A stretch of DNA of 64,000 bases from Bdellovibrionota bacterium (GTDB taxonomy: Bacteria; Bdellovibrionota_C; UBA2361; CAKMMH01): contig JBMNLI010000012.1 of assembly GCA_050952645.1 (NCBI GenBank), forward strand, positions 287,588 to 351,587. Reading direction: 5' to 3'. The position numbers and the translations under genes are program-made. How positions within the stretch are numbered: the first letter of the stretch is position 1; every line of letters starts with the position of its first letter. The notes beneath the pieces were generated by a model. The model did no database searches. It was not told the origin of the DNA and saw only the letters and a list, made by a program, of their open reading frames with translations. Positions 8,481-44,757 of this stretch are shown here, piece by piece.

Positions 8481-8520
8481 AGCTTTTTTTTTTAGATGTT
8501 TTAACTATAAAAGAAACTAA

Positions 8521-8608
8521 TTCTTCACGTTTTAAGGTGATTTTAAGCTCTTAAAGTTAGCAAAAGTTAGCATAGTCTAGTCTTAGGAAGCCTTAAAACG
8601 TGAAGAAC
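8521..8608. repeat. MITE-like element, copy 1 (88 bp) with perfect 17-19 bp terminal inverted repeats TTCTTCACGTTTTAAGG(TG)
   Basis: Left end ttcttcacgttttaaggtg and right end ccttaaaacgtgaagaac are exact reverse complements. Related ends recur at 12524, 21153, 23283, 44657/44757 and 53334. Confidence 0.7.
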
Positions 8609-12523: not shown

Positions 12524-12742
12524 TCTTCACCGTTTTAAGTGGATTAAAGACCTTAAAATTAGTATCACGCACCCCACAAAGCCTAAAAGAAAATTGACTT
12601 TAAAGAAATTTGCATAAAATAAATTACTTTAAATATAGTTGTAATTTTTCTTTAAACTATAGCTAGTTTTTTACAAAAGCCAATTTTCTTTTAAGCTAAC
12701 CTAAAAAACAATTTTTCTAACCCACCCAAAACATGAAGAACC
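12524..12742. repeat. MITE-like element, copy 2 (~219 bp, full-length, uninterrupted; contains the empty group II intron target site at 12696/12697)
   Basis: Ends resemble the TIR of copy 1. About 120 bp of internal sequence is near-identical to 21225-21338, and the 3' part matches 23237-23283. Confidence 0.65.
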
Positions 12743-18515: not shown

Positions 18516-20560
18516 TTATTCTTTACTAGCTTTATCTTTATTAGATTTATCTTCTTTAGCTTTATTATTTTCAAGTGCGTTTCTAGTATCATCTTTTATA
18601 TCATCATTTACATTATTTTTAGTATCATCTTTAGAATTATTTTTTAAATCATTTTTTTCGTCGTTAGAAGAAATTTTTTTACCATCTACGATTTCATCTA
18701 TTTCATCAGCATTAAGAGTTTCTTTTTCTAATACTCTTTTTGCTAGCTCTTCTAGTGTGTTTTTATTATCTAAAACTATTCTTCTTGTCGTATTATAACA
18801 CTCATCTATTATTCTTCTAACCTCAGCATCGATTTCTAGTTGTGTAGTTTCAGAATACTCTCTAGCTTTACCAAACTCTTTTCCTAAAAACACGTGTTCG
18901 TCTTTAGATGAATAATTTATAGGTCCTAACTTTTCACTCATTCCCCATTGACAAACCATTTTTCTTGCGATATTCGTGGCACTTTCAATATCAGAACTAG
19001 CACCAGTGTTAAAATGGTTAAATACTATTTCTTCGGCAGCTCGTCCTCCCATTAGCACTACAATCTTATCTACTAAATAATCTTTAGAATAAGTATGCCT
19101 ATCCGACTCAGGAAGCTGCTGCGTAACTCCTAGAGCCATACCACGGGGCACTATGGTTAATTTATGCACAGGATCTGCATTTTTTAGCTTTTTAGCCACT
19201 AGTGTATGCCCAGCTTCATGGTAAGCGGTAGTTTCTTTTTCTTCATCCGTAAGTATCAAAGAGCGTCTTTCAGCACCCATTAAAACTTTGTCTTTAGCAA
19301 ATTCAAAATCTGAATTTTCTACCTTTTCTTTATTTTGTCTAGCCGCATAAAGCGCTGCTTCATTTACTAAAATCTCTAAATCTGCACCTGAAAATCCAGG
19401 AGTGCCCCTAGCTATAATTTCTAAGTCTACATTATCTGCTAGAGGAGTTTTTCTAGTATGAACTTTTAATATCCCATGGCGTCCGTTAATATCTGGTCTA
19501 GGCACTACTACTTGTCTATCAAATCGTCCTGGGCGAAGAAGCGCAGGGTCTAGCACGTCTGGTCTATTAGTAGCAGCAATCAAGATTACCCCTTCATTAC
19601 TTTCAAAGCCGTCCATTTCAACTAAAAGTTGATTTAGAGTTTGCTCTCTCTCATCGTGTCCCCCACCCATACCTGCTCCACGATGGCGACCTACGGCATC
19701 TATTTCATCTATAAAAATTATGCAAGGAGCATTCTTTTTTCCTTGAATAAATAAATCCCTTACCCTTGAAGCTCCAACACCTACGAACATTTCAACGAAA
19801 TCTGAGCCTGAAATACTAAAAAAAGGAACGCCAGCCTCTCCTGCTATGGCTCTAGCTAAAAGCGTCTTTCCAGTCCCAGGGGAACCTACTAAAAGCACTC
19901 CCTTTGGAATTCTACCTCCTAATTTTGAAAATCTTTTTGGTTCTTTTAAAAATTCTATTATTTCTTCAAGCTCTGCTCTAGCTTCATCTATTCCAGCAAC
20001 GTCTTCAAACGTAACTTTATTTTGATTTTCATTTAAAAGCTTTGCCTTAGATTTTCCAAAACTCATTCCTTTTCCAGAGTTCATTGAAACTTGGCGCATA
20101 AAAAATACCCATATAGCTATGATTATTACTAAAGGAAGCAAGTTTATTAAAACTAAATAATACCAAGGCTCTTCTTTTTCTTCCTTAACCTCTATCTCAA
20201 CACCTTTTTTATTTAATTTATTTATAAGCTTTGGATCGTCTGGGGCGATAGTTGAAAACTGTTCAATAGTATCGAAATATGAGCCAGTTATTTTAGAACC
20301 AGATATTTTTACAGATTTTATATTGCCAGATTCTAATTTTTGATAAAAATTGTGAATAAGAAATTTCAGAACTCTTTTTTATGTCAGGATTCATCGGCAC
20401 CATATAGAGAAAAAATCATTATCGGCAAGGAAAACCCAAAATATTAAATTCTTTACTGTTTGGTTCACGGAAAAAACTCCTAATAAAAATAAAAAAACAC
20501 TAGTAAATATAATAAACTTAACTCTAGTTAAGAGCAATAAGCTAATAAAACTATTTACCT
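18516..20560 (-). CDS. ftsH: ATP-dependent zinc metalloprotease FtsH; intact from TM2 onward, N-terminal ~150 codons interrupted by frameshifts
   Basis: Walker A GSPGTGKT, second region of homology (SRH), and HEAGH zinc motif. Upstream, [20 protein letters not shown] is followed in the +1 frame by [12 protein letters not shown]...[22 protein letters not shown]1-like segment sits further upstream in a third frame. Confidence 0.8.
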
Positions 20561-20617: not shown

Positions 20618-21067
20618 TTAGAATTTTCCAGATGAACCAAACCCACCGTGTCCTCTTTCAGTTTCTCCGAGTGCCTCTAGGGAATCTTCTTCCTTAGCCG
20701 AAACTAAACAAGGAACTACTATGGCTTGAGCAATTTTTTCACCTTTTAATAGAGTTTGTGGTTCCCTCGCTTTCATTTGAAAGAACTATTTTTAGCTCTC
20801 CTCTATAACTAGCATCGATAACGCCAGCATGGGTATATATGCGTCCTTTTAGAAGCCATGCTAGACCTATCTTTAATAATCATTACGTAGCCTAGCGGTA
20901 TAGCAAAATGTAGTCCCGTGCTGACTAATGCTTGCGTCTTAGGTGCAATAGTTATCTCGTTAAATGCTCTTATATCAAAACCTGCATCACCTAAATTGAG
21001 GTATAACTAAGTCTATTCCACTTTCTTTTGCTTCTTTAGTTAAGAAAAATTTTAATTCTGCATTCAT
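20618..21067 (-). pseudogene. dut: dUTP pyrophosphatase (dut) with at least three frameshifts
   Basis: Minus-strand translation gives MNAELKFFLTKEAKESGIDLVIPQ, then NLGDAGFDIRAFNEITIAPKTQALVSTGLHFAIPLGYVMIIKDRSSMASKR, then GVIDASYRGELKIVLSNESEG, then GEKIAQAIVVPCLV...GETERGHGGFGSSGK. Each segment lies in a different frame, spanning 450 bp in total. Confidence 0.6.
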
Positions 21068-21078
21068 AATATCTCTCG

Positions 21079-21152: not shown

Positions 21153-21338
21153 GTTAACTAAATTCTTCACGTTTTAAGGTGTTTTTAAATCCTAAAAAAT
21201 TAGCATCATCCACCCACAGAAGCCCAAAAGAAAATTGACTTTAAATGAATTTGCATAAAATAAATTACTTTTAATATAGCTGTAATTTTTTTTTGAAACT
21301 ATAGCTAGTTTTATATAAAAGTCAATTTTCTTTTAAGC
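21153..21338. repeat. MITE-like element, copy 3, 5' part (interrupted by the group II intron)
   Basis: Starts with TIR ttcttcacgttttaaggtg. 21225-21338 is near-identical to 12583-12696. Ends ...aattttcttttaagc immediately before the intron's GTGTG. Confidence 0.65.
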
Positions 21339-23236
21339 GTGTGCCGGGCACGACATAGTTCTAGCGGGTGAAAGTCCCGTCACGGGTAGTTGTCACCAAG
21401 TGTAGTGATGCCACAAGCTCGAAGCAGTAATGTTAGAGTGAAGGAAGTGGCGGATCAAAACCAAGGAGCCTACGAACAGAAACCAGATACAAGGCTAAAT
21501 GGTGGGTGAGGTTGCGCTACAAACCGAAGCCCTAAAGACAAACGTAAAACCAAACGAGTAAATCTGGAGGTTGTCTGGTGAAAGAACTATGCCTTACCCC
21601 GGGAGGTCCAGATAAGCGTGCTATGCACGTGCGATATAAAGCTTATATCTGGAAGTCAGTTGATACCATAGTACTTGAGACACCACTCAAGGAAGGGTTG
21701 AACGTTAATATATTGTGAATCACTGTAAGCAAGGCTAGAAGAGTCCGAAATTGAAGATATGCCTAACAAACAGGAACGTAACCTGTGGGGGCAGAAGATA
21801 GAGGGGGTGTTTTCTAGTAGCTTTACAAACAGAGGGAGGAGCAACAGGTGGAATTGATTGAACTGATTATATCAGACAAAAATATAGATGAGGCTATAAA
21901 GGCTGTTAAGCGAAATAAAGGTGCATCTGGTGTAGATGATATGCCAGTAGATGAGCTTGAAGACTATTTTGCCGTTCACAGAGAAGAGATAAAATCTCAG
22001 ATACGTGAAGGGAATTATAAGCCGAGTCCAGTTAAGAGAGTGTATATACCTAAAGCTAATGGTAAGATGAGACCTTTAGGAATACCTACAGTAGTAGATA
22101 GGGTAATTCAACAAGCGGTAGCGCAAATACTAGCACGCGGATACGAAAAAGTATTTTAGTAATAGTAGCTATGGCTTTAGACCTAGAAGGAATTGCCATC
22201 TAGCAGTATATAGAACTCTTGAGTACTTGAAAAGAGGCTATGATTGGGTTATAGACCTAGACATAGAGAAATATTTTGATACTGTTAATCACGACAAAAT
22301 TAATTTTCGATAATCAGGGAACGCATCAAAGATGCGAAGACACTACGATTGATAAGACAGTTCTTAAGAGCTGGTATAATGGAAGATGGATTGTTTACTG
22401 TAAGTGAGAAAGGAGTTCCGCAAGGAGGTCCATTATCCCCAGTATTATCTAACATATACCTTGATAAGCTCGACAAGGAACTGGAAGCAAGAGGACTTAA
22501 GTTTGTTAGATATGCCGATGACTGTAATATATTTGTTAGAAGTGAAAAGGCTGCTAATAGAGTAATGAAGTCCGTTGCGAGTTGGTTGGAGCGTAAGCTA
22601 CGACTTAAAATTAATTCAAGTAAGAGTAAAATCTCTAGGCCGACGGAAAGCACTTTCTTAGGCTTTACCTACTGGAAGAGTGGGTATAAAACTTGGAAAT
22701 GTAAACCTGCTGAAGATCGCAAACGAAAACTCTATGATAAAACTAGAGAAATTCTTTGTAGACGGAAGGCAATGGCACGAACGTTAGGTTCGACATTTCA
22801 ACAGCTAAGCTGGTTAATTAAAGGTTGGATAAACTATTATAAGATAGGAACTCTTAAGACTTTTATAGATAAATATGGTCAATGGCTTAGACACAAAGTG
22901 AGGGTTATAATACTTAAACAGTGGAAATTGCCGAGACGAATCTATCTAAATCTTAAGAAATTGAACCGAATGCTTGGTTGCAATTTTAGAAATGAAGAAA
23001 TCTATAAGGTTGCTAACAGCAGACTCGGCTGGTATAGACGCAGTTCGTGGTACGTAGTGAATTATGCATTAAGCCCTAAAATATTGGGGCGTAAAACAAA
23101 GGAACGAATTGGTTTAATCGACCCTTTGACGTATTACCTGAGTATTACTTGATATTATATTAATGGAGCGCCGTATACGAGACCCGTACGTACGGTGCGA
23201 CGGGAGGGAGAGGGTATAGCCCTCGCTCTACCCTAT
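21339..23236 (+). mobile_element. bacterial group II intron (~1.9 kb), En-minus type, inserted in MITE-like repeat copy 3
   Basis: 5' GTGTGCC... boundary. Domain V/VI-like hairpins near the 3' end (gagcgccgtatacgagacccgtacgtacggtgcgac; gggtatagccctcgctctaccctat with a bulged A). The encoded protein is RT plus maturase. The flanking sequence reconstitutes the uninterrupted repeat seen at 12524-12742. Confidence 0.75.
21848..23152 (+). pseudogene. group II intron-encoded reverse transcriptase/maturase, interrupted by two frameshifts (~22150 and ~22315); no endonuclease domain
   Basis: RT motifs 0-2 lie in ORF 21848..22159 (PLGIPTVVDRVIQQAV). RT3-4 sit in another frame (SYGFRPRRNCHLAV ... DLDIEKYFDTVNHDKI). 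RT5-7 and domain X lie in ORF 22349..23152 (GVPQGGPLSPVLSNIYL ... YADDCNIFV). Confidence 0.7.
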
Positions 23237-23283
23237 TAACTCCCAAAAATAATTTTTCTAACCCACCTAAAACGTAAAGAACC
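23237..23283. repeat. MITE-like element, copy 3, 3' part (after the intron)
   Basis: taactcccaaaaataatttttctaacccacctaaaacgtaaagaac matches 12697-12742. Confidence 0.6.
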
Positions 23284-23309: not shown

Positions 23310-25390
23310 TTAAAGCAAAGCTTTTCTAGAGAGCCTTATTTTACCGAATCTATCGACCTCTAAAACTTTCACTTCAATCTCATCGCCAATTTGCATCTCG
23401 TCTTCTACTCGCCTAATTTTCCTATTAGCGATCTCTGAAATATGTAAAAGCCCATCGGTGCCAGGTAGAATTTCAACGAACGCCCCAAAGTCTGCTATTC
23501 TTTTCACTATACCTTTGTATACTTTACCAACCTCGGCTTCAGCTACAATGCTTTCTACTACCGTTAGGGCTGAATTTATATCATCTTGATTAACTGCCGT
23601 AATTGCTACTATGCTATCATCTGAAATATCTATCTTAACATTATAAGACTCTTGAATAGACCTAATGGTTTTTCCGCCTTGCCCTATAATATCTCTTATC
23701 TTATCAGGATTAATTTTTAGCGTTACTATTTTAGGAGCGTAGCTACTAATCTCATCTTTAGGTTTACTTATAACCTCGTTCATTTTAGAAAGGATAAACA
23801 TTCTTCCTTCGTAAGCTTGTGCTAAGGCTTTTTCTAGAATTTCTTTATCTAGTCCTTTTATTTTAATATCCATTTGAAGTGCAGTTACGCCTTTAGCAGT
23901 TCCGCAAACTTTAAAGTCCATATCTCCTAAGTGATCCTCATCGCCGAGAATATCCGTTAGAACTACGAAATCATCACCTCTTTTCATTAGTCCCATTGCT
24001 ACGCCTGCTGCTGGTGCTGTGATAGGAACGCCTGCGTCCATTAACGCTAAACTAGAACCGCACACGGTCGCCATGGAACTAGAACCGTTGCTTTCAGTGA
24101 TTTCTGAAACTATTCTTATTACGTAAGGAAACTCTTCTTCAGGTGGCAAAATAGCGCTTACAGCACGTTCTGCTAGAGCACCGTGCCCAATTTCACGTCT
24201 CCCTGGGCCCCTTACAGGCTTAGTTTCACCTACTGAAAACGGTGGAAAATTATAGTGTAAAATAAATTTCTTTTTTGCATCATCTTCCATTAAATTATCG
24301 ATTCTTTGTGCTTCGCTTTCAGCTCCTAAAGTGGTCGTAACTATAGCTTGAGTTTCCCCACGAGTAAAAAGTGAAGAACCGTGCGTTCTAGGTAGAACTC
24401 CAATCTCTATAGAGATAGGTCTTACCTCGTTAAATGCACGTCCATCTATTCTTTTTCCTTTATCGAAAGCAAACCCTCTAACGATTTGATAATTTAAATC
24501 TTCAAATATTCTATCTATTTGAACTTTAATGTCGCTTGCGTTTTCATCATCTTCTTTAACGAACTCTTCTACTAGTTTTTCTTTCGCTAATTTTACGGCT
24601 TTTGCTCTTTCTAATTTTTCTTTTACTTGAACTGCGTTTTTAATATCTTCAGAAATAAATTTTTTTACATCGTCAAACAATTTTTCATCGTATCTAGTAT
24701 GCTCAAAAACTATTTTTTCTTTTCCTGCTTGTTTAATTAAATCTTCTTGAAGCTCGATAAGTATTTTTAATTCATTATGAGCATATATAAGTGCATCTAG
24801 CACCTCACTTTCAGGCACTTCTTTAGATTCTCCTTCTACCATTACTATTGCATCTTTAGAACCAGCAACGATATAATTTAAATCTGCATTTTCTCTTTCA
24901 GTTGGACTTGGATTTAATCTTTAGTTTGCCGTCTATCCTACATACTCTAACTGCTGCAATTGGTCCATCAAAGGGTATCTCTGAGATTGATAAAGCTGCT
25001 GATGCACCGCACAAAGCTAGAACGTCTGTATCGTGTTCGCCCGTCTGCGCTCATAACGGTCGCAATAACTTGCACTTCTCTATTAAATCCATCTGGGAAA
25101 AGCGGTCTACAAGGTCTATCTATAAGTCTTGAAGTTAGCGTTTCAGCATCGCTAAGTTTTCCTTCTCTTTTAAGAAATCCTCCAGGAATTTTTCCTGCTG
25201 CATAAGTTTTTTCTACATAATCTATGGTAAGAGGAAAAAAATCTCCCTCTTTTTCTTCTCCTAGACAAGCCGTAACGAGCACCACTGAGTCGTAATATCT
25301 TACGAGCACTGCTCCTGCTGCTTGTTTAGCTATTCTTCCTGTCTCTATACTAAAATTACCACCATGAAAGTCTTTCTGTACTATAAACAT
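23310..25390 (-). CDS. pnp: polynucleotide phosphorylase (PNPase) with two apparent +1 frameshifts (~24900 and ~25040)
   Basis: N-terminal 140-aa ORF is a PNPase RNase-PH domain. The C-terminal 510-aa ORF carries the second PH domain, KH and S1 domains. The joining segment translates correctly ([52 protein letters not shown]) only after removing one G from GGG and one A from AAA. Confidence 0.8.
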
Positions 25391-26118: not shown

Positions 26119-26314
26119 TTAAAAATCTCCTATAAAATTATTTCTACAAAAATCAAGATTAAAATTTAACAGATTATTTTAATAAAGTCAATTAAGTATA
26201 TTGATTATATACGTTTTGAAAGTAGGTTTTGTTAGAGGTAAAATTTTTTTAGATAGTTTTGATTTTTTGATAAATATTAAATAATAATTAAAAATAGATT
26301 ATAAAAAAAGGTAG

Positions 26315-26342
26315 CTCGAAAGTGGATCTTCCCACTTTCGAG
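26315..26342 (-). terminator. Rho-independent terminator (11-bp perfect stem ctcgaaagtgg/ccactttcgag, 6-nt loop) at the end of the higher-GC island
   Basis: Perfect hairpin. A-run (plus strand) at 26304-26310 gives a T-run after the hairpin on the minus strand. Lies 34 nt downstream of the stop of gene 26376..26738. Confidence 0.65.
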
Positions 26343-26375
26343 TTTATACCTTTGCAAGTTTACGGAAGCTGTTTT

Positions 26376-26738
26376 TTAAGCAGCTGTAACACCTCCAAGG
26401 CGTACAACTACTATAGCTCCTTCCTTAAGTTCTTTCCCATCAGGTGTTCTCCCGGTTTTTCGTATTATTACCAAAATCTGATGGAGAATAACGCGAGGCT
26501 GACCCCTACTCGTGGCAACGATATCTAGAATATCGCCATCGTATTCTTTTCCTTTTAAATTTTTACTCGTATTAGAGTGGTAAATGGCATAGCAATTCTC
26601 AGCTACTTTCGTCACGATCGCAAGACAGCCTGCTTTAATTCCATCTTCTTCGATAGTTCCATTGAAAAAAACGAAAAAAAACTCCTGGCCTTCAGGTAAA
26701 TTCACTGATACCGCATTATTATCAACAGTATTTTCCAT
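26376..26738 (-). CDS. hypothetical small protein (120 aa), island gene
   Basis: ORF with AAGAAGG SD 8 nt before the ATG at 26738. Higher GC than the genome background. No homology recognised. Confidence 0.45.
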   Translation of the reverse strand: MENTVDNNAVSVNLPEGQEFFFVFFNGTIEEDGIKAGCLAIVTKVAENCYAIYHSNTSKNLKGKEYDGDILDIVATSRGQPRVILHQILVIIRKTGRTPDGKELKEGAIVVVRLGGVTAA

Positions 26739-26917
26739 TAAAAACCTTCTTTCTAAGCTAGTCAAAGCAAAGTAGTCCCTTTGTAAAAACTAAAGGACTG
26801 TTAAAACCGACATAACTTTTTTAGTGTACCTTAAAAACTAATTAAAGAAAATGGTAAAAATTATAAAAATTTATTTAATCTTCAAATAACGCTTTACGTT
26901 CTTTATATAAAAAAAAA

Positions 26918-26957
26918 GCCTCGGAGCGAAAAAAGGTTTTCCTTTTTCGCCCGAAGC
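26918..26957 (-). terminator. Rho-independent terminator after gene 26977..27426
   Basis: gcctcggagcgaaaaaagg tttt cctttttcgcccgaagc imperfect hairpin. Preceded on the plus strand by an A8 run, which is a T-run on the minus strand. Confidence 0.5.
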
Positions 26958-26976
26958 TTATATAACGATTAGCTTT

Positions 26977-27426
26977 TTAGCTGTTCGAGAGTTTAGCAAG
27001 CGTTTCATCACGCCACGCTTTTATTTCATCTTGGTGGGCTTCCTCGGCTTTTAGTACTTCAGCTTTTTCCATAAGGTGTTTTCCATGGAGTGCTGCATGG
27101 AGCCCTACGATTTTTGTATTATCATCACCCCAAAAACAAACGTTCCCATTTACGAGGCTTTCGTCGCCATTGCGATCGATACTTTTTTCCCAAATAACTG
27201 TAATTTTCCCAGTGTCGCTAATTTTGATGATGTTTTTATCTAGCAAATCATCAAAAGAGCTAATATAATCAGTGCCAACAAAGCAGGCTTGAAGTCGACC
27301 TTCTTTTTTTAGATAGACTACTTCAGACTTTTTACCAAAAATTGTGGAGGTTCTGATCGCATCTCCGTACTTTTCAGGAACAAAACAATTTCGAGTAGGA
27401 ACGCCAAACTTAGCATCTAAAGACAT
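26977..27426 (-). CDS. hypothetical protein (149 aa), island gene
   Basis: Intact ORF. No recognisable domain. Confidence 0.45.
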   Translation of the reverse strand: MSLDAKFGVPTRNCFVPEKYGDAIRTSTIFGKKSEVVYLKKEGRLQACFVGTDYISSFDDLLDKNIIKISDTGKITVIWEKSIDRNGDESLVNGNVCFWGDDNTKIVGLHAALHGKHLMEKAEVLKAEEAHQDEIKAWRDETLAKLSNS

Positions 27427-27573
27427 AGCAGTCTCCTTTTATTTTTAAAACCTATTTAAGTCGTGCCTAAAAAGTTTAAGGATTTTTTATCCTTTAACCT
27501 TTTTACGATAATATCTTATTAATTCTTATTACTAAAGTATAACATAAGCGAACACTTATGCTTTTAAAGAAAT

Positions 27574-27786
27574 TTAATCTTGAGGAAAAATCTTTTTGAT
27601 ATTTCCTTGGGATATATCCTTTAATTCATCTTCGGTAATAGGTCTTACATCGCGTCCTACAAAGCGACGAACGATGTTAGGAATGTTTCTTACGATTTTA
27701 TCCAAATAAATTTTATTATCTTTTATGGCTAAGCCAAATTCTTCTAATTTTTGGGCATTAATTTCACAAATGCCAAACCCCTTCAA
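27574..27786 (-). CDS. small protein (70 aa) sharing an N-terminal motif with 29127..29402 (possible swapped-hairpin/AbrB-like fold)
   Basis: GFGICEINAQKLEEFGLAIKDNKI versus HGVLTISPEELEEAGLTIREGKI in the paralog. Confidence 0.4.
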   Translation of the reverse strand: MKGFGICEINAQKLEEFGLAIKDNKIYLDKIVRNIPNIVRRFVGRDVRPITEDELKDISQGNIKKIFPQD

Positions 27787-27797
27787 TAAAAAAAATA

Positions 27798-27823
27798 CTT
27801 AGGGAGCAAAATTACTCCCTAAG
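27798..27823 (-). terminator. hairpin terminator, copy A of a repeated motif (cttagggag caaaatta ctccctaag) followed on the minus strand by a T-run
   Basis: 9-bp perfect stem with an 8-nt loop. A9 on the plus strand lies immediately 5', which is a T-run on the minus strand. A second copy at 28563-28588 has a compensatory change. Confidence 0.6.
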
Positions 27824-28060
27824 CGTTATACATTTATGAACTTTAAGCTATATAAACTCAAGCTCAAACCAAACCAGAATGATTTAACTATCTTATGCAA
27901 TTAAGCGATTTTTTAATTTAGACTTTAATAGTATTTGATGCATCTTCAAGCATTTTGCGATACTTATCGAAGTCTTTAAATGAATATTCGCCAATTGATG
28001 AAGTAACTTCGCCTCCTGTAGCTTCTAGAAACATAGTCTGATTGAGTTCGTTAAGCACCT

Positions 28061-28423
28061 TTAATCAGGGGTTTCTAAAATCAACTTTCCTGCTTGAGAC
28101 TCGACATTAACTCTTAATTGTCCAAATTTGCGATTTGGAGCAAAATAATCAAGAGATAACCCTACAACTTCAAGCAGTTCAATTGGAATAGCGTACCCAA
28201 GAATAGTCCAAACCCATTTTGTAGGGTCTACACTATATAAATAACCTTCGTCAGCGCTATACCCATTTGAAGTACAACTAATTTGCTCCTCGTTTCGCAT
28301 AAGATTTAGAGCTTTGATTTTTGCCAATAACTCTTTTTCATCGCCACTAAAAAACGGGATATCATCCACTCCCTCTTTGGGTGTTTTATTAGGCGGCTCC
28401 GCAATAGTAGGATCATTTTCCAT
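28061..28423 (-). CDS. hypothetical small protein (120 aa), island gene
   Basis: Intact ORF, GC-richer than background. A possible 49-aa ORF follows at ~27915-28064 before the terminator. Confidence 0.45.
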   Translation of the reverse strand: MENDPTIAEPPNKTPKEGVDDIPFFSGDEKELLAKIKALNLMRNEEQISCTSNGYSADEGYLYSVDPTKWVWTILGYAIPIELLEVVGLSLDYFAPNRKFGQLRVNVESQAGKLILETPD

Positions 28424-28562
28424 CGTTAGCTCTACTTTCCGTAGTTATGGAACCTAAAAAGTAAGAAATTTACACTATAAAACCGATTAAAAATAATTGG
28501 TTTCTTTAATGCAAAAACGCCAAATTCACCTATTATCTTTCTAAAAATAGATTAAAAAAATA

Positions 28563-28588
28563 CTTCGGGAGCAAAATTACTCCCGAAG
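28563..28588 (-). terminator. hairpin terminator, copy B of the repeated motif (cttcgggag caaaatta ctcccgaag)
   Basis: Same stem-loop as 27798-27823 with an a>c change compensated by t>g. A-run on the plus strand 5' of it. About 60 nt downstream of the stop of 28648..29025. Confidence 0.6.
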
Positions 28589-28647
28589 CGGACTAGACAA
28601 AACCTAAAGTATAGGTCTTACAAACGACTAGTAAATATCAAAGAACG

Positions 28648-29025
28648 TCATTCGCTTTTTTTTTCGTATTCGGCCAAGCAACCTTTAATGGTTTCTTCGT
28701 CGACAGTTCGATATAAACGCTTGCCACATAACCCCAAATATTCACAGGAGTTATTTTCATCGAGAATTTGCAAACACTCATGTTCGTCAAGTCGTAAATT
28801 ATCCCTACGAAGATCATTTGCTCTTAAAGGAACAACCAAGTAATCTTTACCTATTCCTTGAGTTAAATGTTTAACAGGGTTAAGACCTTTATAAACACAA
28901 TCATCCCAAGCCTCTTGATTTAATATAACGATCGACCAATCACTAGGGGTAATACCATTTTCAGCGGTCGAAAGTCTTTGCTCCCTTAAAAAATCATCGA
29001 AACTTTTTTTACTTTTACCACTCAC
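28648..29025 (-). CDS. hypothetical small protein (125 aa), island gene
   Basis: Intact ORF, ~38% GC by eye. No domain recognised. Confidence 0.45.
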   Translation of the reverse strand: MSGKSKKSFDDFLREQRLSTAENGITPSDWSIVILNQEAWDDCVYKGLNPVKHLTQGIGKDYLVVPLRANDLRRDNLRLDEHECLQILDENNSCEYLGLCGKRLYRTVDEETIKGCLAEYEKKSE

Positions 29026-29126
29026 AGCTTTTTATCCTTTACAAGCTATATAGATTAACCTTACCTAAAAATAAGGGCTGCTATAAAAACAACCCTTAAA
29101 TACGCCTAAAATCACGTCATCGATAC

Positions 29127-29402
29127 TTATTGGCTCATTCCGTGTCTAACACCTCTACGCATTTCGCGGTCTAGGGCATCAAGGTATTCCTCTTTAGTTT
29201 TAAACACACGTGCTTCACAACCTAAGAGTCCCTCGTATTTGTATGGAATTTTGCCTCCTTTTGCGTTTTTACAAATCTTGCCTTCCCTAATGGTCAGCCC
29301 AGCTTCTTCAAGTTCTTCAGGAGAAATTGTAAGAACGCCATGCCCTTTAACGTAAATACACTTACGCCAATCTGCTTCTTTATTAGCAACTACTTTACTC
29401 AT
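29127..29402 (-). CDS. small protein (91 aa), paralog of 27574..27786
   Basis: Shared motif. Weak hairpin (gggctgctataaaaacaaccc) downstream at ~29067-29090. Confidence 0.4.
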   Translation of the reverse strand: MSKVVANKEADWRKCIYVKGHGVLTISPEELEEAGLTIREGKICKNAKGGKIPYKYEGLLGCEARVFKTKEEYLDALDREMRRGVRHGMSQ

Positions 29403-29645
29403 AGTCTTATTCCTTATTTTAAGGATGACCTAGAAACAAAAATTTCACACCAAAGAGCAGCTTATAAAAGCCAAACTTTTAGTGTAAAAACCATAAAACG
29501 ACATTTTATTTTACTAGAGAAATAAACTTTTAGCAACGAAAATAAAACTAACTATACTTAGGTTTTTTAGACCTTAGTTTTTTTAAAGCCTTGTTTTTCT
29601 AAGCATTGCTTTTCTTTATCTTAGTTTCTTAAAATATTTACTTCT

Positions 29646-31211
29646 CTAAAATAACTTCTCTAAAATAAATGTCTCTCCACCATCGGTAACTGCTGCATAA
29701 ACAAGAACATCGTTAACGCGCCACTCTACCTTAAAAGAGCTTGAAATACAAAGACAATCATTAATATCATCTACTTTTAATTTATTAGTAGAAGCCTTAC
29801 TAGGTTCATCAAAGATTAAATCTTCACCTAAATAAACGCCGTATTCGTTAATTTGAAAATTCGTAAGAAAATAGAAATTTCCTAATTTCCCTTGAAGTGG
29901 CGCTCTTATAGCCCTAGTATGTCCATTTACCTCAAAATCTTGAAGCGAAACGATGTTTCTTAGCTGCAACGCTGGAAGCGCAATCCTAATAGTTTTAAGC
30001 TCATCACTAAAAGATTTTTCATTTTTAGATAAAAAATCTTTAGTAATAAAAAACTCAACTTTTCTACCCTTCCCAAATTCTTTACTCACGTCGATTTTTA
30101 GCGTTTCCCTATCATCAGAAAAACAGCCTAACACTTCGCCAACAACGTAGTGTGTTTTAGAAACGGTGCCATCTTGATTGTAGAAAAGACATATTTCTTC
30201 TAACTTATCAAAACGTTTATCCCATACACGACCAGCGTAAATAGTGCTATAGCCTTGCGTCTTACTAGTAGATGAAAAAACATCTTTAGTAATATTAAAC
30301 AAGCGTTTAAACTCAGCGTTCGCCTCACTTAAAGACACGAACTCTAAGCCTGCTATTTTATTGCTGCTGCCTTGTGCCTCATCTGAAATGATCTTAGTTT
30401 CAATAGCGACATATTCGCTTATTCGTGGAATAAACGACGAATAAAAATCGTTAGTCCCGAGCGATAAATATTTGTTGACGCTATTTACAACTTCTATCTT
30501 TCCGCTACTTTTAATAAAAGCAAGTGCAGGAAGCATTGAAACTGCCGACGAACCTCTTTGATAATTCATAAGAAAGTTATGAGTAAACACATCTTTTGAA
30601 AACGTGTTTAATTTATCGATAGGAGTAGCTTTCTTTAAAAAAGAACCATCAGAGGTGCTATAAATAACAGTTTCACTCTCTTTTTCAAACTGAGTAGTAT
30701 ACTTTCTACGAAGTTTTTCCGTTAATGGTAAAATTTCTTTTGTAGAACCACTCTCAACGTAGGGAGTTAGCTTACTGCTAAACCCACACTTATCGGCAAA
30801 CTCTTTAGCTTCTTTAGTCCAAAGATTTTTAGGACTTCCTAAAGCATCTTCATTCAAAGAAGTAGAAGATGAAAAAGTAGAAGATAAAGGCGAAGATGAA
30901 GATAAAGACGCATCGGGCATTGCACCTAAGCTAAGTCGCCTTGGTTTAAAGCCAAATACTGCCTCACCTAACCTCAAACTTTCTTTAGTGTTAGCGTTAG
31001 CAGTGTCAGCACTAGTAGTGCTAGCGTTAGGTTCACTTTGCCTACAAGTCGTAGGGCTAGAAGTTTCCTCTACATTAACACCAAACATGGCTACATCATT
31101 AGCAAAAGTCGTAGCAAAACCTAAAAAAAACAGAGTAATACACAAAGATGCGATAAAATTTTTCTTAATCATCGCACTTTGCCTCCTTTCTTTTCTTTTT
31201 CCTTTTATCAA
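29646..31211 (-). CDS. secreted 521-aa protein of unknown function (first gene of the higher-GC island)
   Basis: Signal peptide (IASLCITLFFLGFATTFA). Ser/Thr-rich linker. No recognisable domain. Confidence 0.5.
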   Translation of the reverse strand: MIKGKRKERRQSAMIKKNFIASLCITLFFLGFATTFANDVAMFGVNVEETSSPTTCRQSEPNASTTSADTANANTKESLRLGEAVFGFKPRRLSLGAMPDASLSSSSPLSSTFSSSTSLNEDALGSPKNLWTKEAKEFADKCGFSSKLTPYVESGSTKEILPLTEKLRRKYTTQFEKESETVIYSTSDGSFLKKATPIDKLNTFSKDVFTHNFLMNYQRGSSAVSMLPALAFIKSSGKIEVVNSVNKYLSLGTNDFYSSFIPRISEYVAIETKIISDEAQGSSNKIAGLEFVSLSEANAEFKRLFNITKDVFSSTSKTQGYSTIYAGRVWDKRFDKLEEICLFYNQDGTVSKTHYVVGEVLGCFSDDRETLKIDVSKEFGKGRKVEFFITKDFLSKNEKSFSDELKTIRIALPALQLRNIVSLQDFEVNGHTRAIRAPLQGKLGNFYFLTNFQINEYGVYLGEDLIFDEPSKASTNKLKVDDINDCLCISSSFKVEWRVNDVLVYAAVTDGGETFILEKLF

Positions 31212-31393
31212 GGAAAATTAACCTAAATAGAACTTAGTTTAAAAAATACATAAACTAAAGTTCTATAAAAAAACATACATCTAATTATACTATAATATTT
31301 TAAAATATTTTGCAAAGGAAATTTAAGCTTATTTTATAGATAATTTACTAGATAATTATAGATATACTCGTTTAAAAATATAGTTTTATCCCA

Positions 31394-33151
31394 TTAGATT
31401 AAGAATAAAAACATTATAAATAAAATAACTAAAAAAAGCGTAATACCAATAGGAGCTTTTCTTTCATTAAATTTACTAGAAATATTATTAAACCCTCTAC
31501 CTATACTACTTCCTATACTAAGAAGCTTTTTATAAGATATACTATTTAAAGATTCTAAACCTTTATCTATAGTGGCGTTAGTTTTTTTAAATAATTTCCT
31601 ATAAAAATAATCGACATCGATAGTTATCTTATCTCGTTCTTTGTGGTAAATATTATATTTCTTACAAATATATAAAGAAAGAGTAGCAAAAAATAAGATC
31701 TCTAATTGTGTAAGAATGTGAAAACTCGTGTAAGGATTATAAACACTTTCAAAAGGTAAAATATCATAAAGCATTCGATTAGGAAAAAGCCCGATAGCTA
31801 CACAAAGCAAAGAAAGCAAACCCATCGATACATACATACAAATAGGAAGTTTCTTGCTGCCATCTTCTAAATTGCAAACATCATCTTCATTATCCTTATT
31901 GTTTTTGTTATCTGCAAAATTATCTTTAAAAAAAGCGCAATACGGCACCTTAAAATACTTTACGACTGCCGCGCTTCCTATAAGCAAAAACACCCAAACT
32001 AGAGTTAAATTATTTTCAAGTGCACTAGAAAGAATCATTGGTTTTGCTACAAATCCACTAAACATAGGAAAGGCAGCGATAGAAAGCGAACCTATAACGG
32101 CAAAAATAGTAAGAAGTGGCACTTTCTTATAAAGTCCGCCTAGCTTAGAAGCCTTGCAAGTGCCATACTTATAAAGAAGCGCTCCTGTTACCATAAAAAG
32201 TAGCGACTTGTATAAAACGTGAACAAACACCTGCGAAATAGCCCCACTTAGCGATAAATCGCTCCCTATTCCTATCCCTACAACTATAAAGCCTAATTGA
32301 TTTATTAAGCTATAAGATAAAACCTTTCTTAAATCGTTTTCTAAAACTGCAAAAAAAACTGGCACTATCACCATAACTATTCCAATATAAATTAAGGCTT
32401 CCACTCCTAAAAAACACCTAATAAGAGCATACATAGCGACTTTTGTAGTAAGAGAAGATAAAAACACAGCGCCAACTATACTAGCTTTATGATATGCGTC
32501 GGTTATCCAAGTATGAAGCAAAGGAAACCCCGCATTGACTCCTATTCCTAAAAATATTAAATACGTAGAAAGTGAATTTAAACTTAACTTTCTTATAGAA
32601 AGCGATGGAGACTCGCTATATAAAAGCAAAATTCCACATAGCAAAACAAGCCCACCTATTATATGAAAAATTAAATATCTAAACGATGCTTTTTTGCTTT
32701 CTTTATGTTCTCCTAAATATATGAATATAACTGCACCGAAAGTTAAAAGTTCCCAAAAAATATAAAAAGAAAGAAAATCTCCAGCAAAAATAACTCCTAA
32801 ACTAGCCCCTATGTAAAAAAGCCCAGCTCCAATTTCTATGCTATTTTTAACGTAGCTAGAATAAATTAGTGCAAAAATGGCAAACAAATGAAAAAGAAAG
32901 GCAAAAATTAGCGTTATATTATCGTATACGAAAGGCTCTATATTAAAACCTAAAATATTAAAACTTAAGATACGCCCATTAAATACATTATCCGACGTAA
33001 ATTTTACAATAGAAAAAATGCTTGCAATAGGCACTAATAAAGAAAAATTCGTTCTAAGATTTCCCTTTAAAAAGCTAGTTATAATTCCACCTATTATAAA
33101 AATAATCGATGGCATTAGAAAAAAATTAAAATAAATATTACTGCTTATCAT
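31394..33151 (-). CDS. Mrp/Mnh antiporter large subunit (MnhA/D-like, NuoL/M/N family), copy 3
   Basis: 585-aa polytopic membrane protein with a NuoL/MrpD-like TM core. Confidence 0.7.
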   Translation of the reverse strand: MISSNIYFNFFLMPSIIFIIGGIITSFLKGNLRTNFSLLVPIASIFSIVKFTSDNVFNGRILSFNILGFNIEPFVYDNITLIFAFLFHLFAIFALIYSSYVKNSIEIGAGLFYIGASLGVIFAGDFLSFYIFWELLTFGAVIFIYLGEHKESKKASFRYLIFHIIGGLVLLCGILLLYSESPSLSIRKLSLNSLSTYLIFLGIGVNAGFPLLHTWITDAYHKASIVGAVFLSSLTTKVAMYALIRCFLGVEALIYIGIVMVIVPVFFAVLENDLRKVLSYSLINQLGFIVVGIGIGSDLSLSGAISQVFVHVLYKSLLFMVTGALLYKYGTCKASKLGGLYKKVPLLTIFAVIGSLSIAAFPMFSGFVAKPMILSSALENNLTLVWVFLLIGSAAVVKYFKVPYCAFFKDNFADNKNNKDNEDDVCNLEDGSKKLPICMYVSMGLLSLLCVAIGLFPNRMLYDILPFESVYNPYTSFHILTQLEILFFATLSLYICKKYNIYHKERDKITIDVDYFYRKLFKKTNATIDKGLESLNSISYKKLLSIGSSIGRGFNNISSKFNERKAPIGITLFLVILFIMFLFLI

Positions 33152-39214: not shown

Positions 39215-39411
39215 ACTTAAACCGTAATCAATTTAAAAAAAACATACTACTAGAATAGTATAAAATAATTTATAATTTTGACAAGATTTAATATTATACA
39301 AGTGGTATAAGTGGGCCCTTTAGATAAAATTTTTAAAATCATTGACATAATTTAAAAATTTCTCTATTCTACTATTTTATATCGTTAAATTGTTTGGAAA
39401 ATTTTTTTTAT

Positions 39412-39485
39412 GGGCCAGTAGCTCAGCTGGTTAGAGTGCGTGCCTGATAAGCACGAGGTCGGAAGTTCGATTCTTCCCTGGCCCA
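39412..39485 (+). tRNA. tRNA-Ile (anticodon GAU)
   Basis: Cloverleaf: acceptor gggccag/ctggccc, D-arm gctcagctggttagagt, anticodon loop cuGAUaa, T-arm ggttcgattcc. No encoded CCA. Confidence 0.85.
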
Positions 39486-39679
39486 AACAACCAACCAAAC
39501 AACCAACAAAAAAAAAGAACAAACAAAATTAAACTAAAACAAAGTAGTTGGTATGATTTGTTTAATGCTTAAAATTAGATAATTAGTATTGAAAATATTT
39601 GTTTTATATACTAACATCTTAAAAGTTGTTGTTGTTTCAAAAAATTTATAAATTTATAATTTTGAAATTTGTCTTTTAG

Positions 39680-39752
39680 GGGGGTATAGCTCAGTTGGTA
39701 GAGCGTCGGCTTTGCAAGCCGAATGTCATGGGTTCGAATCCCTTTACCTCCA
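39680..39752 (+). tRNA. tRNA-Ala (anticodon UGC) with the G3:U70 identity pair
   Basis: Acceptor gggggta/tacctcc with the G3-U70 wobble. Anticodon loop tTGCaa. T-loop ttcgaat. One mismatch in the T-stem. Confidence 0.8.
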
Positions 39753-44637: not shown

Positions 44638-44656
44638 AGTATTTAATAATAATAGT

Positions 44657-44757
44657 TCTTTAACGTTTTAAGGTGGGTTTAAGACCTTAAAAATTAGTAT
44701 CACTCACCTACGAACCCAAAAAACAATTTTTCTAACTCACCTTGAACGTCAAAGAAC
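44657..44757. repeat. MITE-like element, copy 4 (101 bp, internally deleted version)
   Basis: Left end ttctttaacgttttaaggtgg. Internal sequence shared with copy 2 (tttaagaccttaaaaattagtatcac; aaaaaacaatttttctaac). Right end caccttgaacgtcaaagaac. Confidence 0.65.

Follow-up and report, generated by a model that had tools for sequence, protein, structure and literature searches.

Gene-turnover hotspots that are flanked by core genes and contain no recognisable mobile elements have been described in many bacteria (Oliveira et al. 2017, PMC5635113). A second kind of accessory gene, the prophage moron, is defined by a promoter and/or terminator of its own together with a deviant G+C content (PMC2920897). 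Here we examine a locus that shares features with both. It lies in a 64,000-nucleotide stretch of DNA (hereafter, the window) on contig JBMNLI010000012.1 of a Bdellovibrionota bacterium (GCA_050952645.1) and consists of approximately 5 kb of accessory genes on the minus strand (26195–31393), bounded on one side by the stop codon (31394) of the last mrp gene and on the other by the promoter region of rpsO, which is conserved. In this metagenome-assembled genome (MAG), the island bears the locus tags ACOX3T_05480 to 05519. We consider it probable that the interval is flexible-genome cargo in a gene-turnover hotspot, namely the mrp–rpsO spacer of a low-GC Bdellovibrionota clade.

What sets the island apart is directly observable: its anatomy, its lack of relatives, its variability between species, its atypical composition and its density of terminators. 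Pfam assigns MrpE, F, G, B and C and three MrpD-like subunits to one flank, and S15 and PNPase (rpsO-pnp) to the other. The original prediction, which had been made from the nucleotide sequence alone, placed every open reading frame (ORF) between these two operons on the minus strand. This claim held, and the coordinates proposed were essentially right. The first gene in the direction of transcription (gene A) codes for a large exported protein. It is followed, as anticipated, by small genes on the same strand; there are six (B, C, D/E, F, G and H), which encode proteins of 91, 125, 168, 70, 149 and 120 aa in a block of 3.4 kb. The small proteins, which lack hydrophobic segments, are soluble; those of 91 and 70 aa are basic, and the rest acidic. 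DNA with 99.9–100% identity to the window is also present in JGI 3300060679 (L001), ERR10905742 (L002) and SRR31061295 (L003). ERR10905742 comprises HiFi reads from anaerobic digester sludge (PMC10541625), and the organism that carries the window occurs in this habitat.

The strongest evidence for a hotspot comes from comparison with sister species. We located the closest relatives by way of their PNPase, fetched the corresponding contigs, and compared three species of the clade. In the first relative (L006 and L007; GCA_964534945.1, SRR8925823; PNPase 86–87% identical), mrp and rpsO are separated by 115 nt, an empty site. The second relative (L008–L011; 20 contigs from several samples; PNPase 84–86% identical) contains exactly one gene between mrp and rpsO. 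The 450-aa product of this gene (7955–9307 of L008) has a signal peptide and lacks Pfam domains. A terminator of −25 kcal/mol closes the gene, and rpsO follows with no small gene in between. The protein encoded by gene A aligns to this 450-aa protein with 28% identity over 377 aa (E 1e-32). With tblastn, no homologs of the small proteins were found in the ±10 kb flanks of either relative, and the large protein matched the 450-aa gene only. Counted from the same mrp gene to rpsO, there are therefore 0 and 1 genes in the two relatives and 7 in the window. Because the sisters have either an empty site or a lone 450-aa gene, the small-gene block appears to be lineage-specific and the mrp–rpsO spacer a hotspot of turnover. 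The original prediction would have been refuted by an island that is syntenic and invariant across related genomes, and the island is not invariant.

The borders of the variable interval can be located with some precision. On the mrp side, nucleotide homology to L006 and L008 ends at about 31586–31596; it sets in again at 26194. All three species share a conserved rpsO promoter and leader (TTGACTTT...), including the −35 box TTGACT (26186–26191, minus strand). Since similarity ends at this −35 box, the variable interval corresponds to the short spacer from the mrp stop codon to the rpsO promoter. Among the genomes compared, the mrp–rpsO junction itself is specific to this clade. No members beyond the three species were found in our genome and metagenome scans. 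A scan of a genome collection with the flanking Mrp subunit returned an unrelated Anaerovibrio locus and a 2.6 kb contig from an uncultured Mogibacterium MAG (L004; CAYFWG010000149.1). The first 187 nt of the latter match the mrp gene of the window at 94.7% and the remainder is unrelated, so that this contig looks chimeric or mis-binned. A scan of JGI metagenomes with an Mrp alignment returned 80 distant loci (28–47% identity), none with rpsO or island homologs nearby.

These comparisons point to a hotspot, in a small clade of uncultured Bdellovibrionota with roughly 30% GC, whose cargo in the window lies in two layers. The first is the gene for a fast-diverging, Sec-exported protein of ~500 aa; one sister species carries a homolog at the same position, and another has none. 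The second, restricted to this lineage, is the 3.4 kb block of six small genes for which no relatives are known.

Gene A (29646–31172, minus strand; ACOX3T_05510) is preceded by the Shine-Dalgarno sequence AAGGAGG. A secreted large protein had been predicted here. The signal peptide was borne out by inspection, the N-terminus (MIKKNFIASLCITLFFLGFATTFA) reading as a Sec-type signal; the length is 508 aa as annotated, not 521. The signal peptide (residues 1–24) is followed by a low-complexity linker rich in serine and threonine to approximately residue 120 and by a conserved domain (residues 146–502). This domain aligns to residues 95–448 of the 450-aa relative, and the N-terminal ~145 residues do not align. 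AlphaFold2 without an alignment gave an unusable model with a predicted local distance difference test (pLDDT) score of 33.6. At this locus, identity falls from 86% for PNPase to 59% for the adjacent Mrp subunit and 28% for the exported protein. The exported protein therefore diverges far faster than its neighbours, which suggests diversifying selection or allele replacement acting on what may be an envelope or extracellular protein.

Upstream of gene A, a consensus scan identified a candidate sigma-70 promoter (TTTGCA-16-TATAGT; 31289–31316, minus strand). By eye, the L008 homolog is preceded by a similar arrangement (TTGCAT-17-TATAGT, within 7877–7954 of L008). Promoter candidates were called at the level of consensus only, with 19 found and 19 expected. 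The leader of gene A also contains an AT-rich 14-bp inverted repeat (31222–31262, minus strand; dG −12.8 kcal/mol, z −3.8) between the predicted promoter and the Shine-Dalgarno sequence, which could be an operator or a leader hairpin.

The second line of evidence is the way in which the island genes are terminated. Of the 7 island genes, 5 are followed by a strong terminator (dG −14 to −27 kcal/mol, z −4.3 to −6.1); in a scan of all gene ends in the window, this was the case for 4 of the 45 other genes (Fisher p = 9e-4). The proposal that each gene has its own terminator is thus correct for most of the island and fails for two genes: none was found downstream of gene A, and gene F is followed by weak hairpins only. 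All strong terminators are oriented with the genes on the minus strand. Gene B is followed by an 11-bp stem with a T-run (29072–29098; dG −16.8 kcal/mol, z −4.3), gene C by a hairpin at 28562–28589 (dG −20.1 kcal/mol, z −5.8), gene D/E by a hairpin at 27797–27824, and gene G by a 19-bp stem with nine T residues (26916–26959; dG −27 kcal/mol, z −6.1). The last terminator (26315–26342; dG −20.4 kcal/mol, z −5.6) closes the island, as had been predicted, and lies ~120 nt upstream of the rpsO −35 box. From its position, this element would shield the rpsO-pnp promoter from read-through. Since most of the small genes come with a Shine-Dalgarno sequence of their own and are followed by a strong intrinsic terminator rich in G+C, they look autonomous. 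They may represent insulated, moron-like transcription units that are separated by terminators and presumably served by separate promoters.

The hairpins after genes C and D/E are two copies of one 28-nt element, GCTT[A/C]GGGAGTAATTTTGCTCCC[T/G]AAGT, which occurs exactly twice in 64 kb (0 expected). They are part of a 40-nt direct repeat with 93% identity, one copy of which is located at 27786–27825. The only two internal differences between the hairpins form a single compensatory pair, A-U in the copy after D/E where the copy after C has C-G. Under random substitutions, this outcome has a chance of ~1%. The earlier claim that two hairpins differ by a compensatory pair, and that this indicates selection on RNA structure, is therefore well founded. 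Because the sole differences form such a pair, the structure of the hairpin is under selection, as it would be for a working terminator. The repeat flanks the 168-aa gene, and genes B and F are paralogs. Based on these two observations, the block grew in part by local duplication.

Composition provides a third line of evidence. The island had been described as visibly richer in G+C than its surroundings. It is compositionally atypical, but the contrast is smaller than claimed (34.4% for the island, 31.0% for the window), and the segment 28648–29025 measures 36.5% instead of the ~38% estimated by eye. Individual island genes have 32–41% GC. Their G+C content at third codon positions (GC3) ranges from 0.27 to 0.33, with a mean of 0.286 compared to 0.234 elsewhere in the window (Mann-Whitney p = 1e-4), and the elevation is common to all eight island ORFs. 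In L008, the 450-aa gene has a GC3 of 0.344 compared to 0.10–0.22 in all 20 neighbours, a contrast much stronger than any within the window. High expression does not explain these values, since rpsO (0.098) and pnp (0.114) are among the low-GC3 neighbours.

Finally, the island proteins have no relatives that we could name, in agreement with the original prediction. Pfam, NCBIfam, PHROGs and PADLOC give no significant match for any of them, even at E<=1. For the small proteins, HMMER run exhaustively over 1.84 billion representatives returned self-matches alone, and a word-indexed search of 5.8 billion clusters did the same for the large one. Phage records (INPHARED), plasmid records and IMG/VR contain no match to any island protein, and a scan of JGI metagenomes with an alignment of the large protein found nothing. 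Among the ~15 billion database sequences covered, no relative of the seven proteins was detected. Rfam identified no family within the island even at E<=5. A Pfam match is lacking for all seven island genes and for 12 of the 40 other window genes (p = 8e-4).

After establishing these properties, we turn to the question of how the island may have arisen and what it may do. We favour acquisition by horizontal transfer or by recombination at the flanking core genes over ancestral presence. The exported protein would act at the envelope or outside the cell, and the small soluble proteins could be cytoplasmic accessory factors. If this reading is right, the mrp–rpsO spacer is the storage site of the newest strain- or species-specific genes of the clade and a place to look for factors of niche adaptation or of interaction with prey or phage. 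The island represents the usual cargo of a flexible genome and opens no new mechanism. Its seven proteins join the many others without relatives, which can be explained only by determining their structures or studying their expression.

Several observations weigh against this reading. In tetranucleotide usage, the island deviates mildly (z = 1.6, eighth among 119 windows), and its compositional deviation within the window is modest overall. Outside the island, around one third of the window's genes have no Pfam domain either, so that it is common in this genome for a protein to have no known relatives. Relatives of the small proteins encoded elsewhere in the sister genomes at ~28% identity would miss the E-value threshold of a search in a large database. 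At the island, there is no integrase, transposase, att-like flanking repeat or tRNA that would mark a mechanism of insertion. Pfam found no Phage_integrase in the 40 window proteins scanned, a few small ORFs lying outside that scan, and the search for flanking direct repeats or att sites gave nothing convincing, the sole candidate being a 19-nt AT-rich match after two terminators. The three species stand at almost equal distances from one another (pairwise identities of 86–87% for PNPase and 58–60% for the last Mrp subunit), and for this reason parsimony cannot separate gain in this lineage from loss in the others. PNPase neighbours at 66–68% identity have a different gene upstream of rpsO and therefore cannot polarise gain versus loss either. 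The similar promoter layout in two species also favours old vertical presence and fast divergence of the large gene.

These points feed the best of the alternative explanations, that the genes are ancestral and lineage-specific: they would have been present in the ancestor of the clade, would have evolved fast and been deleted in the two sisters, and the composition would be a local or selective effect. We regard this as unlikely, though not negligible. It accommodates a large gene that two of the three species have in the same position behind a similar promoter, a species tree that is unresolved and a mild tetranucleotide signature. It is most plausible for the large gene, which differential loss fits best because the promoter layout is seemingly conserved. 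For the island as a whole, it is difficult to reconcile with the raised GC3 in all eight ORFs and with a GC3 that makes the L008 gene a ~6-sd outlier, because synonymous sites should have equilibrated over a divergence that left 28% protein identity. The style and density of the terminators are also unlike those of the backbone, and the small genes have left no trace near the locus in either relative. On this balance, we retain turnover of flexible cargo as the preferred explanation.

The small genes were examined one by one. Gene B (29127–29402, minus strand) codes for the basic 91-aa protein (pI 9.0). The motif [LI]xxEELEExGLxIxxxKI, which the original prediction had noticed in two of the proteins, proved to reflect true paralogy of B and F (BLASTP E 4e-7, 33% identity over 48 aa). 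We modelled the small proteins as a concatenated chain using AlphaFold2 without an alignment. The overall pLDDT was 38.7, and only the 91-aa protein exceeded 70: its residues 11–80, at pLDDT 70–84, are the sole usable segment among the island proteins. The predicted order is strand-strand-helix-strand-strand, followed by a short helix, a strand and a long C-terminal helix. The first part of this order could hint at a swapped hairpin, but in a model of this kind it is only suggestive. Fold searches with the model returned no significant match, and the B/F pair has no Pfam or PDB sequence match and no PDB profile match. A SpoVT/AbrB/MazE-like assignment was considered and rejected, as hhalign of the B/F profile against MazE/ChpS/PrlF gave a probability of 0.9%. 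Gene F (27574–27786, minus strand; 70 aa) is a 5′-truncated paralog of B and is identical in L002 and L003. Its start codon, TTG, directly follows the T-run of a terminator and is not preceded by a Shine-Dalgarno sequence; compared to its paralog, the protein is missing the first 17 residues. Because of these features, it may be a relic.

Gene C (28648–29025, minus strand) starts with GTG and codes for an acidic 125-aa protein with 5 cysteines; a 99% identical copy is present on the JGI contig (L001). Gene D/E (27918–28423, minus strand) had been read as two genes of 120 and 49 aa. It is one gene for an acidic protein of 168 aa, intact in L001 and L002. In the assembly of the window, it is split into 120 + 46 aa because a G is missing between 28064 and 28065. 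Two independent metagenome assemblies, JGI 3300060679 and ERR10905742, have the extra G at this site, and the deletion is confined to the window's assembly. Since the MAG contains other indels (in pnp and dut), the most likely cause of the split is an artefact of assembly or a minor variant. The Logan contig from SRR31061295 (L003) is 100% identical to the window and ends exactly at the indel site 28064/28065, which hints at read heterogeneity there. Gene G (26977–27426, minus strand) has the Shine-Dalgarno sequence AAGGAG and codes for a protein of 149 aa.

The product of gene H (26376–26738, minus strand; 120 aa) bears a weak likeness to the endonuclease region at the C-terminus of LtrA-type group II intron proteins. 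It matches positions 534–590 of the PADLOC HEase model (E 0.0013, 15.6 bits), a match that is not significant after multiple testing. The similarity to residues 531–571 of LtrA (PDB 5g2x_C) is weak (E 0.29), with the run KNLKGKE in common. The CxxC motif of the HNH domain is replaced, so that the cysteine ligands are absent, and Pfam finds no HNH domain. Protein H may be a decayed fragment of an intron-protein endonuclease or a chance match.

The original prediction had offered a defence or anti-defence cluster as one possibility, and a related proposal would see a novel set of defence, anti-defence or prophage-derived moron genes, either remnants of phages and satellites or cargo in the conflict between phage and host. 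Autonomous units with deviant GC do fit the definition of morons (PMC2920897), protein H has its marginal matches to a homing-endonuclease model and to LtrA, and a group II intron is located only 3 kb away. We nevertheless judge this explanation improbable. Apart from the single marginal HEase match of protein H, which fails correction and is without the cysteine ligands, PADLOC gives no support for defence, and PHROGs, the phage records and IMG/VR have no match. Pfam scans also found no phage structural, integrase or repressor genes in the window. Because no homolog occurs in the phage collections (PHROGs, INPHARED, IMG/VR), occurrence in two or more phage classes, a third characteristic of morons, is missing here. 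A more speculative version, to which we assign an equally low probability, holds that the six insulated genes, perhaps with the exported protein, form an as yet unseen conflict module of an apparently anaerobic lineage, with functions in phage defence or anti-defence or as effectors in prey or host interaction. Such a module would be delivered into a dedicated site upstream of the rpsO promoter by recombination that leaves no integrase or att scars.

The original prediction had also compared the layout to an array of polymorphic toxin and immunity genes or of effectors and anti-effectors. A secreted large protein followed by small genes on the same strand does resemble a polymorphic toxin accompanied by arrayed immunity or orphan cassettes, but the defining features examined contradict this explanation, and we consider it very improbable. 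The large protein is conserved at its C-terminus and variable at its N-terminus, the reverse of polymorphic toxins. A gap of 244 nt separates gene A from gene B. The homolog in L008 stands alone and is closed by a terminator; since no small gene follows it, partnership with the large gene is not obligate for the small genes. Searches with tblastn and for repeats detected no repeated pre-toxin or C-terminal homology downstream, and no similarity within the island beyond the B/F pair and the terminator repeat. Finally, Pfam and NCBIfam found no toxin, pre-toxin, immunity or trafficking domains in the island proteins, even at E<=1.

Least credible of all is an integron-like cassette array without integrase (a cluster of attC sites lacking integron integrases, CALIN), which would explain same-strand small genes without relatives, a hairpin after each and two homologous hairpins as attC sites: attC sites are 57–141 nt long and imperfect, those of the island are 27–44 nt with perfect or near-perfect G+C-rich stems and T-runs, the genes carry their own Shine-Dalgarno sequences, no integrase is detectable by Pfam in the 40 window proteins scanned, and a motif scan, on which we rejected this assignment, found no intergenic RYYYAAC...GTTRRRY core pairs, the sole pair lying inside gene A (2 found, 1.2 expected).

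Other parts of the window deserve mention as observations in their own right. A group II intron (21339–23244, plus strand) separates pnp from dut, two genes that are only 107 nt apart in L008. Rfam recognises RF02001 at 21421–21592 (106.7 bits) and RF00029 at 23166–23236. The gene for the intron protein is broken into ORFs of 103 aa and 267 aa, the latter with a partial RVT_1 domain and GIIM. The intron, with the 5′ end GTGTG, was inserted exactly within one copy of a dispersed intergenic repeat of ~200 nt, after ...TTTTAAGC. Copies of this repeat are located at 12544–12742, 21161–21338 + 23245–23283, 44655–44757 and 8519–8555, without a match in Rfam; the copy at 12544–12742 represents the uninterrupted "empty site" of the intron. 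In this MAG, pnp (23310–25390) contains two frameshifts and dut (20621–21073) three. An intact PNPase of 692 aa is encoded in ERR10905742 (L014), identical over the 510 aa compared. The frameshifts in pnp and dut are probably assembly indels, and for this reason gene boundaries in this MAG need to be treated with caution. The ORF listing starts ftsH (18516–20468, minus strand) at TTG 20141 (541 aa), and tblastn with a sister FtsH remains in frame up to 20468, so that an in-frame stop or a sequencing error may be present near the 5′ part. Genes for tRNA-Ile(GAT) (39411–39486, plus strand) and tRNA-Ala(TGC) (39680–39752, plus strand) lie on their own upstream of the mrp operon, and the window contains no rRNA gene; the usual place of this pair is the 16S-23S spacer.

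Comparison with known systems summarises what kind of locus this is. With integron arrays and CALINs, the island has in common small genes of the same orientation without relatives, each with a hairpin. It differs in that these hairpins are canonical intrinsic terminators, with no R and L boxes and no intI. Polymorphic toxin loci such as those of contact-dependent inhibition (CDI) and Rhs systems share the sequence of a large exported protein and small same-strand genes, but this likeness is superficial, since the island protein combines a variable N-terminus with a conserved C-terminus and has no coupled downstream gene. Like prophage morons, the genes are inserted between conserved neighbours, have their own terminators and presumably their own promoters, and differ in GC from their surroundings. 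The difference is one of context, as the island sits between chromosomal housekeeping operons (mrp and rpsO) and not between phage genes. The hotspots of horizontal gene transfer described earlier (PMC5635113) resemble it most. Our comparison covers three genomes, and every gene of the cargo is without known relatives. As in those hotspots, accessory genes are concentrated in one interval bounded by core genes, here mrp and rpsO, the content varies between genomes, and neither integrase nor transposase accompanies it.

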